DNA of 64,000 bases from a virus (IMGVR_UViG_3300037507_003370:1-64000); one strand, 5' to 3'; shown: positions 1 to 12,935, numbered from the stretch's first letter. The notes: generated from the sequence alone by a model not told the origin. Program-made: numbers and translations.

Positions 1-22
1 GTCTTACAGAATAAGGACTTAG
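1..22. repeat. 80-bp element, partial (last palindrome; truncated by window edge)
   Basis: GTCTTA-CAGAA-TAAGGACTTAG abutting the tRNA-Asp 3' end. Confidence 0.75.
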
Positions 23-96
23 CGAGAATGACGGGACTCGAACCCGCAACCTCTAGCGTGACAGGCTAGCGATCTAACCGATTGATCTACATTCCC
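23..96 (-). tRNA. tRNA-Asp(GTC)
   Basis: Full cloverleaf on minus strand: GGGAATG/CATTCTC acceptor, CTAGC-CT GTC AC-GCTAG anticodon arm, TTCGAGT T-loop; no encoded CCA. Confidence 0.95.
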
Positions 97-99
97 AAA

Positions 100-171
100 T
101 AGCCCCAAGAGGAATCGAACCTCTAACCAGTGCTTAGAAGGCACTTGTTATATCCATTTAACTATGGGGCC
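100..171 (-). tRNA. tRNA-Arg(TCT)
   Basis: Cloverleaf: GGCCCCA/TGGGGCT acceptor, AGTGC-CT TCT AA-GCACT, TTCGATT T-loop. Confidence 0.95.
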
Positions 172-179
172 ATATGCCT

Positions 180-207
180 ATTATACTGTATCCACTCAAT
201 GCCGCAA
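180..207 (-). promoter_or_regulatory. sigma70-type promoter for tRNA-Arg/Asp
   Basis: TTGCGG-16-TATAAT ending 9 nt before tRNA-Arg. Confidence 0.6.
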
Positions 208-260
208 GCCCCCACGGTTTCCCGTGGAGGCTGAAGCGGTTTGATGATAGAATCAGTCGA

Positions 261-512
261 TCAAGCCTCGACCGTTTCCTTGACCTTCTTAGGATTCGCG
301 GAGTCGCCCGCAGCCTCGGCAGTCACACCCGTAACACGGGCACGCCACACCTTATAACCCTGCTCAGAAAAACTCTTGATCTCACCGGCCTTTACGTTCG
401 CATGAACGTCGCCGGGAAGATTCTCATTCAGTGCATCAGTCAGGCTCGCCACGACCGAATCACGATCCAGTTCATCGGCAACAACATCAACAGTAAAAGC
501 AAACTTCTTCAT
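261..512 (-). CDS. Hypothetical protein (83 aa from MKKF)
   Basis: ORF with GGAG RBS downstream of promoters. Confidence 0.75.
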   Translation of the reverse strand: MKKFAFTVDVVADELDRDSVVASLTDALNENLPGDVHANVKAGEIKSFSEQGYKVWRARVTGVTAEAAGDSANPKKVKETVEA

Positions 513-553
513 TGTAATCATCTCCAAAAAGTGTAATCGAACCAAGTAAAGTA

Positions 554-582
554 ATCATACCAACCGTATCATCACTTGTCAA
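554..582 (-). promoter_or_regulatory. sigma70-type promoter
   Basis: TTGACA-17-TATGAT. Confidence 0.65.
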
Positions 583-640
583 GGGCTAGGTCGAACTTTT
601 TTGGTTGCGATCAACCAGCGTCTTGTCTTGTGATGCTATC

Positions 641-668
641 AGTATAGCATAGTTATCGGCACTGTCAA
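641..668 (-). promoter_or_regulatory. sigma70-type promoter, class I (CGATAA in spacer)
   Basis: TTGACA-gtgCCGATAActatgc-TATACT. Confidence 0.8.
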
Positions 669-700
669 CCCCTTCTCATTAGTATTTTTCACGATTGTTC

Positions 701-780
701 CTAAGTCGTTATGGGATAAGAGTTTACGTCGAATCGCCGCGGCCGTCCTCGCCGCAAAGTCTTATGCGGCAAGGCTTTAG
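701..780. repeat. 80-bp double-palindrome element
   Basis: CTAAGTCGTTA-N5-TAAGAGTTTAC / 26 bp / GCAAAGTCTTA-N5-CAAGGCTTTAG. Confidence 0.9.
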
Positions 781-782
781 GC

Positions 783-1166
783 TCAGGAGAGAAAACCCTC
801 ACAACCCTTGTCCACAAGGTCACGCAGCAGATTTTCAGCCGCTTCGGGAGTCTTGAGAGTTACGCTGTTCTTCGTGCCTGGAGTTGCAGGAACGAACGTG
901 TCGTACTTCCAGCCACCAACCAGAGCATCACTCCAATCCTTGGCTTCCTTCAAGCCCCATCCGGTGTGAGTTCGGATAGCCTTGATGCAGTAGATACGAT
1001 TATCCAGAGTCATGCCACCAGTGATGGTAACGGTGCGATTCTGGCTCACGCCCAACGCAATCTCCACAGAGTTCACGATCTTGTGATACAGTTCAGCATC
1101 GTTGTTGTATGCCCAGTTGCTAGCCAAATACATAGCCTCACGAACAGTCAGTTGCAGATTAATCAT
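783..1166 (-). CDS. Ribosomal protein bL12 (L7/L12) C-terminal-domain-like protein
   Basis: IYCIKAIRTHTGWGLKEAKD resembles the L12 CTD motif KIxVIKxVRxxTGLGLKEAKD; C-terminal PEAAENLLRDLVDKGCE matches the last helix. Confidence 0.65.
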   Translation of the reverse strand: MINLQLTVREAMYLASNWAYNNDAELYHKIVNSVEIALGVSQNRTVTITGGMTLDNRIYCIKAIRTHTGWGLKEAKDWSDALVGGWKYDTFVPATPGTKNSVTLKTPEAAENLLRDLVDKGCEGFLS

Positions 1167-1645
1167 ACCTTAAAATCTCCTAAATACTTGGAATCTATTT
1201 CTCTAAGATCGTCGAACGAGCAGTGTCGTTCTTCTAAAATATAAACTTGTTTACCACTAGTAATGAGTGTAGCGTATTCGCTTTCATCCCATATGAACTC
1301 ATTGCTATCGCTCTCACGACGCCAGTATGGATCACGAAGTGGATTATAAAACACACGCTCAAGATTGTCAATAGGCAACGTAGGATAAAAATCCTTGCGA
1401 AGCATAACTTCCTCACACTTTACCCATCCGCTCACATCATGCACACCAGCCTCAAATACTTGTTTGGCTTTATTTGGTCGATTGCGAAGTTTACAACCCC
1501 TCATTTCCAACTGGTATTCTTTGGGATCGTAATAATATACATCAACAGTCTTACTACCTTGCTTAACTTTAATCTGCCAGTGCATAAAATGTTCGCCACT
1601 GGAAAGATGAAAACGAACTTCACCGTGCATTGGTCGTGATTTCAT
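1163..1645 (-). CDS. Hypothetical phage protein
   Basis: 160-aa ORF overlapping neighbours in the operon. Confidence 0.75.
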   Translation of the reverse strand: MKSRPMHGEVRFHLSSGEHFMHWQIKVKQGSKTVDVYYYDPKEYQLEMRGCKLRNRPNKAKQVFEAGVHDVSGWVKCEEVMLRKDFYPTLPIDNLERVFYNPLRDPYWRRESDSNEFIWDESEYATLITSGKQVYILEERHCSFDDLREIDSKYLGDFKV

Positions 1646-1877
1646 ATGGAATATTCCCTAATAAAATGTCAAAACATTGTTGACAAATCATACTATCCAA
1701 CATTCTGTGCTGGCTTGGATTAAGATATGTAAAAGCCTCTTCGGACTCTTTACCATTAATCCATACTTCAATATCATTATCCTCAACCCAAATATCTTGA
1801 TGATTACCGCATATTCTACAATCAACGGGAATACAATGCTTTCCCCCCTTTAAATAATCATTTCTATCCCAATCCAT
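1620..1877 (-). CDS. Small Zn-binding phage protein (paralog of 3103..3363)
   Basis: CxxC pairs; W-x2-G...AFTYLNPSQHRML similar to WLNG...CFPHLNAEQREIL. Confidence 0.7.
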   Translation of the reverse strand: MDWDRNDYLKGGKHCIPVDCRICGNHQDIWVEDNDIEVWINGKESEEAFTYLNPSQHRMLDSMICQQCFDILLGNIPYEITTNAR

Positions 1878-1895
1878 GATTGATCTCCTCAAACG

Positions 1896-1924
1896 ATTAT
1901 ATACTATTAACCAAGTCTTGTCAA
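1896..1924 (-). promoter_or_regulatory. sigma70-type promoter
   Basis: TTGACA-17-TATAAT, perfect consensus. Confidence 0.8.
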
Positions 1925-1938
1925 GACCTTTAAACTTT

Positions 1939-11888: not shown

Positions 11889-11905
11889 TTCTTTTCCTTT
11901 TCCCT

Positions 11906-11933
11906 AGTATACTTATCGGCAATCCTACGTCAA
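11906..11933 (-). promoter_or_regulatory. sigma70-type promoter, class I
   Basis: TTGACG-taggattgCCGATAAg-TATACT. Confidence 0.7.
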
Positions 11934-11953
11934 CCCCACTAGAAAATATTTTT

Positions 11954-12118
11954 TCAGTGAGCAAAAGCCGGAAGCCTTTTGATGATATTTACCCTACACC
12001 CATCCTCACCATCCCACTTATCGAAAGCGGCAGTAGTTGCCTGATCCTCAGTATAAAACGGGCCGATGAAATCCAGTTCACAATCCCAAGCGTCTACGAT
12101 TTGAGCGAAGTATGTCAT
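11954..12118 (-). CDS. 54-aa hypothetical protein (from MTYFAQ)
   Basis: GGGAG RBS behind class II promoter; upstream ORF extension overlaps the promoter. Confidence 0.65.
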   Translation of the reverse strand: MTYFAQIVDAWDCELDFIGPFYTEDQATTAAFDKWDGEDGCRVNIIKRLPAFAH

Positions 12119-12148
12119 TTCTTTTTCTCCCTTTTCTCTTATATCGTC

Positions 12149-12176
12149 ATTATACAGAATCCACTTTAGATTGCAA
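12149..12176 (-). promoter_or_regulatory. sigma70-type promoter, class II
   Basis: TTGCAA-TCTAAAGtggattctg-TATAAT-gACGATATAAG. Confidence 0.75.
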
Positions 12177-12214
12177 GCACAAAGTTTCCTTACAATGTCG
12201 TAAGGATACCAGTA

Positions 12215-12229
12215 GCAAATGTCATACCA
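12215..12229 (-). promoter_or_regulatory. sigma54-type -24/-12 motif
   Basis: TGGTATGACATTTGC. Confidence 0.5.
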
Positions 12230-12280
12230 AGAATATAGTATTCCCTTAAACATAACATCGTGTCGATCATATGATTAGCC

Positions 12281-12342
12281 ATAAGTCTATATACAGCAAT
12301 ACTTTACGTCAAATCGGGCCGCCCCATTTTTCTAAATTTAAC
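12281..12342. repeat. 80-bp element, partial
   Basis: ATAAGTCTATA-N5-CAATACTTTAC, spacer with CGGGCCGC, second palindrome decayed. Confidence 0.7.
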
Positions 12343-12351
12343 ATACCCCCC

Positions 12352-12564
12352 TTAGGTAGCATGTATGAATACTTGTTCATTTTTTGTCTTGTTAGTAATG
12401 CTCACAATCCAGTTACGCCCACTACCATCCTCACGCATGATAGCATTGATGATGCCCACATGAGCGTTGCCCTTTGGGTCAATCACACTGCCATACTTGC
12501 CAGCACGCATAGCGGCCATAATCTTGTCGAGGCTATTCATTTTCTTTTCCTGTAGAGTGATCAT
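12352..12564 (-). CDS. Hypothetical protein
   Basis: Behind promoter 12565-12593; likely start MNSL. Confidence 0.7.
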   Translation of the reverse strand: MITLQEKKMNSLDKIMAAMRAGKYGSVIDPKGNAHVGIINAIMREDGSGRNWIVSITNKTKNEQVFIHAT

Positions 12565-12593
12565 ACTATATACCTTATTCCCTTACTTGTCAA
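12565..12593 (-). promoter_or_regulatory. sigma70-type promoter
   Basis: TTGACA-17-TATAGT. Confidence 0.7.
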
Positions 12594-12727
12594 GAGGCAT
12601 TCATGAATCGGATGGCTTCTTCACTATTCTTGAACGTACCAAGCAACTTCCTATTTTTCCCATCATTCTTATTCGAATCCATCCTATATACCTTATACTT
12701 CTTACCAACCTGAATGAGAGTCAGCAT
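12590..12727 (-). CDS. 45-aa mini-protein, paralog family A
   Basis: KYKVYR...DGKNRKLLGTFKNSEEAIRFMN. Confidence 0.7.
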   Translation of the reverse strand: MLTLIQVGKKYKVYRMDSNKNDGKNRKLLGTFKNSEEAIRFMNAS

Positions 12728-12754
12728 TTTGGCCTTTCTTTCTTGTGTGCTGCT

Positions 12755-12782
12755 ATTATACCATATTTATCGGCCATTGCAA
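12755..12782 (-). promoter_or_regulatory. sigma70-type promoter, class I
   Basis: TTGCAA-tggCCGATAAatatgg-TATAAT. Confidence 0.7.
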
Positions 12783-12829
12783 GACAAATCTTGAAATATA
12801 TTTTCGTGCCAAATAAAAATATTTTTAGA

Positions 12830-12844
12830 GCAAATTTCGTGCCA
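12830..12844 (-). promoter_or_regulatory. sigma54-type -24/-12 motif
   Basis: TGGCACGAAATTTGC, exact consensus. Confidence 0.65.
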
Positions 12845-12893
12845 AATATATTATTCTCTTAAACACAAGATAGTATCAATCACCCGATTATAC

Positions 12894-12935
12894 ATAAACC
12901 CATACCCTACAACACTTTACGTCAAAATTGGCCCC
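12894..12935. repeat. 80-bp element, half copy at array boundary
   Basis: ATAAACCCATA-N5-CAACACTTTAC-GTCAAAATTGGCCCC. Confidence 0.6.

Follow-up and report, generated by a model that had tools for sequence, protein, structure and literature searches.

A length-invariant double-dyad element at the seams between early transcription units in a clade of freshwater phages

Operator systems with several sites upstream of promoters include phi29 p4 with p6 and the KorB operators of IncP plasmids. In T4-type phages, the repeated units called PeSLs (promoter-early stem-loops) combine a promoter and a stem-loop before small, mostly orphan early genes, and their copies are points of homologous exchange at which cassettes are inserted, deleted or replaced between relatives (Arbiol et al. 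2010, PMC2839356; Comeau et al. 2014, PMC4122927). Here we describe an 80-bp element, two imperfect dyads around a GC-rich core, which is repeated through the early region of IMGVR_UViG_3300037507_003370:1-64000, a stretch of 64,000 nucleotides of phage DNA that is called the window below. The existence of the element is confirmed, and it is under strong constraint and present across the clade. Judged from its sequence and its position, it is probably a composite protein-binding module, namely a paired operator on duplex DNA for the early regulon, which doubles as a PeSL-like substrate for homologous recombination. The analysis covers 193 distinct copies from the window and its relatives, with 264 distinct doubles for the spacing, and five array-carrying relatives rated complete, which were used as the whole-genome test set.

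The element has a layout of 27 + 26 + 27 bp. Each of its two units is an imperfect dyad, CGTAAAGTCTTA-N5-TAAGAGTTTAC, followed by GTCAAA, and the palindrome extends into this hexamer, so that one unit covers about 34 bp. The dyad centres lie 53 bp apart, which is about five helical turns, and the 5 bp at each centre are the least conserved positions and free to vary. AA/TT dinucleotides are conserved at element positions 3-4, 9-10, 18-19, 24-25, 56-57, 62-63, 71-72 and 77-78. The core between the units has 75% G+C and contains a GGSCGSCC-type palindrome about position 40.5. A first, sequence-only reading of the window had described this core as GC-rich and often CGGCCG; the former is borne out, while CGGCCG is present in 46 of 193 cores only.

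There are 11 complete elements and 4 partial ones in the window, all in one orientation and all inside 1-12.9 kb (Table 1). The weight matrix built from the 11 complete copies gave 60-97 bits at these positions, with the plus strand as the best-scoring strand in 11 of 11 cases, compared with a maximum of -1.2 bits in shuffled sequence, and nothing comparable was found by the 80-bp matrix over 13-64 kb. The matrix of a single unit recovered all 22 units together with the lone units 12281 and 12894, and none in 13-64 kb; a repeat search gave a further lone unit near 8988. Together with the copy cut by the window start at 1-21, this makes four partial copies, in agreement with the sequence-only reading, and the other 51 kb of the window contain none. 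The consensus palindrome of that reading, GTAAAGTCTTA-N5-TAAGACTTTAC, did not survive as a search pattern: this idealised form had zero matches at up to 3 mismatches, and weight matrices were required.

It turned out that 80 diverse copies could be aligned in 92 columns with zero gaps. Among the 264 distinct doubles, the distance between dyad centres is 53 bp in 250, 52 bp in 9 (including all seven doubles of one contig), 54 bp in 4 and 48 bp in 1, and the same census contains 51 single, unpaired units. The geometry had been called invariant, which is right for the lengths of the parts and nearly so for the spacing.

To describe the location of the element relative to genes, we compared its edges with the open reading frames (ORFs) and promoters around it. 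Generally, the element marks the seam from one early transcription unit to the next and begins directly where the upstream operon has its stop codon. In 88 of 153 copies the stop of the upstream ORF falls on element positions 84-86 or is a built-in TAA at positions 79-77, and the stop at 84-86 is a TGA that comes from the conserved GTCA read backwards. The docking of gene ends at the element edge, first seen in the window, is confirmed there and is general in the relatives. In each of the five complete relatives, all matches (13-39 per genome, counted strand-wise) fall within a single block 8-20 kb long and are not scattered over the genome. The same block is where near-consensus sigma70-type promoters are concentrated on the gene strand. 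Of the two proposals made in the sequence-only reading, that of an operator for one protein is the better supported; it is not genome-wide, the copies being confined to the early promoter block.

On the other side of the element, 113 of 193 copies are followed within 70 nt by a good promoter on the gene strand. The distance from the element to the start of the -35 box is 18-20, 27-34 or 38-40 nt (clusters at about 19, 30 and 39), and these distances are phased with a period of 10.5 (R = 0.67, Rayleigh p about 2e-12, n = 60 promoters with similar flanks removed). Accordingly spaced, the promoter-proximal dyad would lie about 68-69, 78-79 or 88-89 bp upstream of the predicted transcription start. 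In the window, promoters follow 8 of the 11 complete elements at 19-33 nt, so the earlier statement that a strong promoter follows each element stands for these eight; for elements 9565 and 11332 the promoter is about 90-100 nt away, and for element 10502 there is no clear sigma70-type promoter within 70 nt. Besides, a third palindrome, CCTTAC-N6-GTAAGG, is found at 8958-8986, 11235-11263 and 12179-12207, just upstream of TTGCAA-type -35 boxes, and these repeats belong to the 9-12.3 kb part of the array.

Whether the symmetry of the element serves base pairing was examined in the gap-free alignment. When two local hairpins are assumed, 75.0% of the cells are paired, compared with 75.6% in shuffles, and for a single global hairpin the values are 68.0% and 68.2%. 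Scores of compensatory covariation do not exceed those of shuffles, RNAalifold returned an empty structure for 193 copies on both strands, and both strands have similar mean folding energies (-27.8 and -27.1). The mini-palindromes inside the sub-sites contain one weakly covarying pair only (52-69). Dyad symmetry is held in the consensus, in the style of a protein operator, rather than by base pairing, and symmetry of this kind without covariation or a consensus fold suggests a protein site on duplex DNA. The top long-range pairs in mutual information (22-59, 23-58 and 21-60) were considered as base pairs and rejected, as they reflect half-site variants that run through whole lineages.

These results bear directly on an explanation at the RNA level, in which the elements are hairpins of early mRNAs for termination, 3' protection or RNase III-type processing, similar to the stem-loop of PeSLs. 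The start of the element at the stop codon of the upstream operon fits this explanation, and so do two features of sister lineages described below, where type-2 dyads could form perfect 6-bp hairpins and a C-rich hairpin can replace unit B in lineages with single units. Nevertheless we regard it as unlikely, since neither covariation nor a consensus fold is seen on either strand, and the commonest non-Watson-Crick pairs are G-T on the plus strand and hence mismatched A-C in the mRNA. No terminator-like site was predicted at any element and no U-tract follows the elements, while separate C-rich hairpins before 10502 and 11332 indicate that something else terminates there. The exact length, the spacing of 53 bp and the phase relation with the -35 box are not properties of RNA.

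The half-sites differ between lineages, and within one lineage the same variant is found in every copy and in either arm: AAGASTTT in the lineage of the window, AAGSACTT in a second lineage and AAGGSTTT in a third. The sister contigs L099, L107 and L109 have no window-type element and carry instead a different double dyad of 44 bp, which we call type 2 (the window type being type 1). It consists of CTGCCATTTTGGCAG, a 14-bp core and CTGCCATTTTGGCAG again, and its start-to-start distance is always 29 bp. Type-2 elements are present in 12-18 copies per record, in one block (21.9-41.9 kb in G009, a complete type-2 genome), and the reversed control pattern of the dyad gave zero copies. They occupy the same junctions as the window type, for instance after the orthologue of ORF 9678-10070, and their core is similar in G+C (74% vs 75%), with GCGGCC abundant in both. 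Hybrid elements with one unit of each type exist. Some lineages use single units only, which fits the view that one unit is one putative binding site. Changes in a single arm of type 2 are likewise uncompensated. Dyads that change in concert, or are replaced outright, while the architecture stays are expected of a cis site whose reader changes.

The same pattern bears on a further explanation, which takes the element for a topological one like the repetitive extragenic palindromes (REPs) and bacterial interspersed mosaic elements (BIMEs). The element would then be a site for gyrase or a nucleoid protein, or a cruciform pair, and would handle supercoils between strong tandem operons by means of host proteins. 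Its place at operon 3' ends in a block of very strong promoters is in line with this, as are the GC core between A/T-rich arms and the two inverted palindromic units around a linker, which is the arrangement of BIMEs. On the contrary, lineage-specific half-sites and outright replacement of dyads point to a specific, changeable partner and not to a general host enzyme. An exact-pattern search of 185,579 species genomes of bacteria and archaea did not find the element, mismatches in the arms are too many for easy extrusion of cruciforms, and no RAYT-type transposase (PF01797) goes with it in the relatives for which the search is reported below. We give this explanation only a slim chance.

Near-perfect TGGCAY-N5-TTGCT motifs, which resemble sigma54 promoters, were found on the minus strand at 9487-9505, 11254-11269, 12217-12232 and 12820-12846, 45-55 nt after elements 9565, 11332, 12281 and 12894, and on the plus strand at 10470-10485. 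Either these are genuine sigma54 promoters, or a protein that recognises TGGCA may use them as its sites. Such motifs also occur in relatives (L107 3195-3222, L109 480-545), with inverted pairs near L075 2350-2390. In the usual NtrC-type enhancer, two dyads separated by a whole number of helical turns lie at about -70 to -140. The dyads of the element match this layout, and together with the very good motifs near four elements, recurrent in relatives, this would suit an upstream activating sequence (UAS) that binds an enhancer-binding protein and drives nearby sigma54 promoters. However, the motif is within 200 nt of only about 10 of 188 elements, and most elements lie 19-33 nt from sigma70-type promoters. 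The motif runs with the genes in the window and is reversed in type-2 lineages and at 10502. There is no convincing PF00158 activator in the five complete relatives, where two weak AAA+ matches were obtained (E about 0.007); a host-encoded activator is possible. Taken together, the enhancer explanation is very improbable.

In the paired-operator reading, which we prefer, one dimer would sit on each dyad, with both dimers on the same face of the helix and cooperating; they might form a tetramer that holds the GC core between its halves. This complex would act on RNA polymerase at the adjoining promoter and so bring the whole early regulon under joint control. Shut-off, or insulation from read-through, would be likelier than activation, because the promoters are already near consensus. 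At the same time, the 12-21 dispersed look-alike copies per genome serve as patches of homology at which general recombination joins unrelated cassettes, as is the case for PeSLs.

We searched for a protein that might bind the element. The proteins of the window were compared across type-1, type-2, single-unit and element-free loci, and no type-specific pattern of identity was found among them. Comparison of the whole proteomes of G001, G002 and G004 (type 1) with that of G009 (type 2) likewise gave no type-specific DNA binder; only one acidic protein and spurious frames were type-specific. These four genomes share 24-68% protein identity, so different hosts, and hence readers encoded by the host, are possible. 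A 76-aa basic protein, whose gene comes first in the minus-strand block, at the divergent junction, shows weak GcrA, Myb and transcription-regulator signals and a C-terminal RGRP motif (AT-hook-like). A 109-aa basic early protein is strongly conserved, with more than 1000 homologous clusters in metagenomes and the invariant motif EKVLKFNR...DPR..GG.D.MIVKVGKPGS; it belongs to no family, and its AlphaFold model is poor (pLDDT 71, pTM 0.33). A literature search for the element motifs gave chance matches only.

Several points weigh against the paired-operator reading. The null result of the proteome comparison is one of them. The only recognisable DNA-binding early proteins are the 76-aa protein, with its helix-turn-helix and AT-hook features, and HU. 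The former is present in all related lineages and types with an unchanged putative recognition helix, and HU was rejected as a reader of the element, being absent from the five complete relatives. Roughly one in two of the window's strong promoters lacks an element, and promoter activity as such therefore does not require it. Besides, its place upstream of the promoters, not over them, is unusual for a simple repressor, and 27-34 bp is large for a dimer site. The phasing signal has two main modes and could be explained by compaction, and copies from related contigs are not fully independent.

Other early proteins of the window were noticed. An 89-aa protein rich in Asp and Tyr (8356-8625, minus strand) is extremely acidic (isoelectric point 4.1), is present in G001, G002 and G004 and missing in G009, and is a possible DNA mimic. 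The minus strand also encodes, at 10078-10227, 11022-11174 and 12590-12727, three paralogous mini-proteins of 45-50 aa with the motif KYKVYR...GKNRKLLGKFKTSEDAIRFMN.

The sequence-only reading had also proposed that the elements are recombination sites for gain, loss or shuffling of cassettes, of the Sin/beta-resolvase or integron-like kind. Mosaicism at the elements is indeed seen. For pairs of copies that share one flank only, 49 share the gene-end flank and 43 the promoter flank (92 in total), and the identity in these pairs decays across the element, exceeding background along its whole length and reaching background level only at the far edge. The cassette with the HU gene is an insertion relative to L021, bordered by half element 8988 and full element 9565. 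In contigs of lake metagenomes, one joint leads from 7865 to 739 inside two cores (element 7834 to element 701), and another sets element 701 ahead of promoter 5845; the same contigs also contain a promoter-to-promoter deletion from 7605 to 7801. Homology breaks between the window and its relatives, taken as the ends of high-identity matches, are enriched only 1.5-2 fold at elements, with the majority at plain gene-gene junctions. The stretch lost in the promoter-to-promoter deletion, 7606-7800 (small ORFs and one promoter), is replaced by 33 nt in contigs of 3 of the 4 lake runs compared, and the deletion runs from one copy of the promoter repeat to another.

In such a site-specific system, a dedicated serine or tyrosine recombinase with HU or IHF would excise, insert and reorder cassettes that carry their own promoters. 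The mosaic joints that pass through elements, the cassette indel bordered by element copies, the variant element-element joints in lake contigs and the stop codons docked at a fixed place could all be explained in this way. But no enzyme for it was found: tyrosine integrase (PF00589) is absent from the five complete relatives and present in 14 of 14 control genomes, serine resolvase (PF00239) is absent from the five and present in 12 of 14 controls, and Y1 transposase (PF01797) is absent from four of the five and from the type-2 genome G009, with positive controls. The HU gene inside the array, taken earlier for an accessory factor, belongs to a separate accessory cassette, and no homologue of it was found in the five complete relatives by a search that was positive in three other contigs (E about 1e-42). 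The dyad centres, where strands would be exchanged, are the least conserved positions, crossovers are spread over the element and both of its edges with no single point, most homology breaks lie at gene junctions without elements, and deletions from promoter to promoter occur as well. A dedicated recombination site is accordingly highly improbable, and neither a recombinase nor a regulator that tracks the element type was found in the complete relatives. As a secondary role, the elements are seams of mosaicism, which is expected of homologous recombination between dispersed repeats, as in PeSLs; this much of the shuffling proposal is retained.

The features of the window are collected in Table 1.

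Table 1. Copies of the element, adjoining promoters and selected genes in the window
Feature	Position	Strand	Remark
Element end (outer unit B), cut by window start	1-21	+	Abuts tRNA-Asp 3' end; found by reading the sequence
tRNA-Asp	22-96	-	3' end abuts truncated element at 1-21
Sigma70-type promoter TTGACA/TATACT	641-668	-	-35 starts 32 nt after element 701
Complete element	701-780	+	96.3 bits; minus-strand gene 783-1166 stops 3 nt from edge
Sigma70-type promoter	2073-2101	-	19 nt after element 2120
Complete element	2120-2199	+	97.2 bits; stop of ORF 2188-2310 internal to element
Sigma70-type promoter	3385-3413	-	About 20 nt after element 3434
Complete element	3434-3513	+	83.7 bits; inner half-sites are the swapped AAGACTTT / AAACTCTT variant
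Sigma70-type promoter	4279-4307	-	About 30 nt after element 4338
Complete element	4338-4417	+	92.1 bits; stop of ORF 4399-4875 internal to element
Consensus sigma70-type promoter	5226-5253	-	About 19 nt after element 5272
Complete element	5272-5351	+	80.9 bits
Sigma70-type promoter	5817-5845	-	About 30 nt after element 5876
Complete element	5876-5955	+	88.0 bits; upstream gene 5958-6227 stops at edge
Sigma70-type promoter	6724-6752	-	About 19 nt after element 6772
Complete element	6772-6851	+	96.9 bits
Sigma70-type promoter	7777-7805	-	About 28 nt after element 7834
Complete element	7834-7913	+	86.9 bits
Half element, unit A + GC core	8988-9030	+	Left border of HU-gene cassette; cassette missing in L021
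HU-family gene, PF00216	9121-9420	-	E 4e-28; separate accessory cassette
Complete divergent element	9565-9644	+	60.1 bits; right border of HU cassette; after conserved early ORF 9678-10070
109-aa basic early protein	9678-10007	-	Strongly conserved, no family
Complete element	10502-10581	+	79.8 bits; no sigma70-type promoter within 70 nt
Complete element	11332-11411	+	83.6 bits; on the gene strand followed by TGGCAT-N5-TTGCT, then TTGCAA/TATAAT promoter
Half element, unit A + core	12281-12325	+	34.9 bits, unit matrix
Half element, unit A + core	12894-12935	+	25.3 bits, unit matrix; final copy of array
76-aa basic protein	13952-14182	-	First gene of minus-strand block at divergent junction
Large terminase	17565-19601	+	Virion block

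The window is part of a large tailed phage of about 150 kb, which is uncultured and comes from a lake. Its first 13 kb contain small minus-strand genes and four tRNA genes at 42-45% G+C, and the remaining 51 kb, at 27-40% G+C, contain virion genes on the plus strand, one of which encodes a protein of 4648 aa with a minor-tail domain. The early block (1-13000) is richer in G+C than 14000-64000, and the GC cores of the elements account for part of the excess. No phage in GenBank matches the window at the DNA level, and the best cultured match of the terminase has 25% identity. In IMG/VR, more than 596 contigs have a terminase about 80% identical, and some of them are complete (150-224 kb). For lake-water metagenomes filed 2020-2024, the word search was made with the stretch 600-8000 only, and up to 95% of its sampled words were present.

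A broader reading, put forward tentatively, is that the element may be the cis half of an undescribed early-regulon system in a large and widespread clade of freshwater phages. One protein, or a small set, would read two dyads at a distance of five turns and a shared GC core in phase with the host RNA polymerase, and its specificity may have been swapped several times (three half-site variants, the CTGCCA-N3/4-TGGCAG dyad and the hybrids), like immunity types. If this is true, co-infecting relatives would keep separate early programmes and yet trade cassettes at shared seams. Apart from this broader reading, the element supplies a precise cis-code, open to testing, for the earliest genes in a phage clade that is abundant and never cultured. 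Its rigid geometry and the lineage-wise switching of its dyads make it well suited to the search for a new DNA-binding regulator and to the study of joint change in cis sites and their reader. Besides, the PeSL idea of regulatory repeats as recombination seams for orphan early genes is extended beyond T4-type phages and terminator hairpins.

Among known systems, PeSLs resemble the element in being composite repeats of a variable region that precede small early genes, most of them orphans, in having a strong sigma70-like promoter in the repeated unit (here in 113 of 193 copies) and in acting as points of homologous exchange (here the 92 one-flank pairs, the HU indel and the metagenome joints). 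In PeSLs, however, the partner of the promoter is a terminating stem-loop, whereas here it is a length-invariant dyad pair with a GC core and no predicted terminator, phased to the -35 box and swapped wholesale in sequence between lineages. Integron attC sites share imperfect palindromes right after the stop codons of cassettes, an array in one orientation and variable gene content. They differ in that no integrase is present in the complete relatives here and the cassettes here carry their own promoters; also, attC keeps its structure and varies in length and sequence, whereas the present element keeps its length and key bases and not its pairing. Compared with Sin/beta-type res sites, serine recombinase (PF00239) and an HU homologue are both missing from the five complete relatives, for which host HU or IHF is a possible accessory protein.

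REPs and BIMEs likewise have two inverse palindromic units around a short linker, at operon ends and in many copies. The element differs from them in being phage-borne and confined to one block, in its A/T-rich arms and G+C-rich linker, which is the opposite of REP, and in having no RAYT and no exact-pattern occurrence in cellular genomes. From a sigma54 UAS it differs in that the sigma54-type motif accompanies about 10 of 188 copies only and is reversed in other lineages. The systems of phi29 p4/p6 and KorB have imperfect inverted repeats bound by dimers at set distances from promoters (binding is putative here), many copies for one regulon, cooperation on the same helix face and an optional histone-like partner. 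Unlike them, the present system is known from its sites alone, and these are larger (about 34 bp), duplicated at exactly 53 bp, present in 12-21 copies per genome and also serve as cassette borders. In conclusion, the element resembles operator arrays in two respects: its dyad symmetry belongs to the consensus and shows no compensatory change, and its sites have a fixed helical relation to each other and to the promoter.

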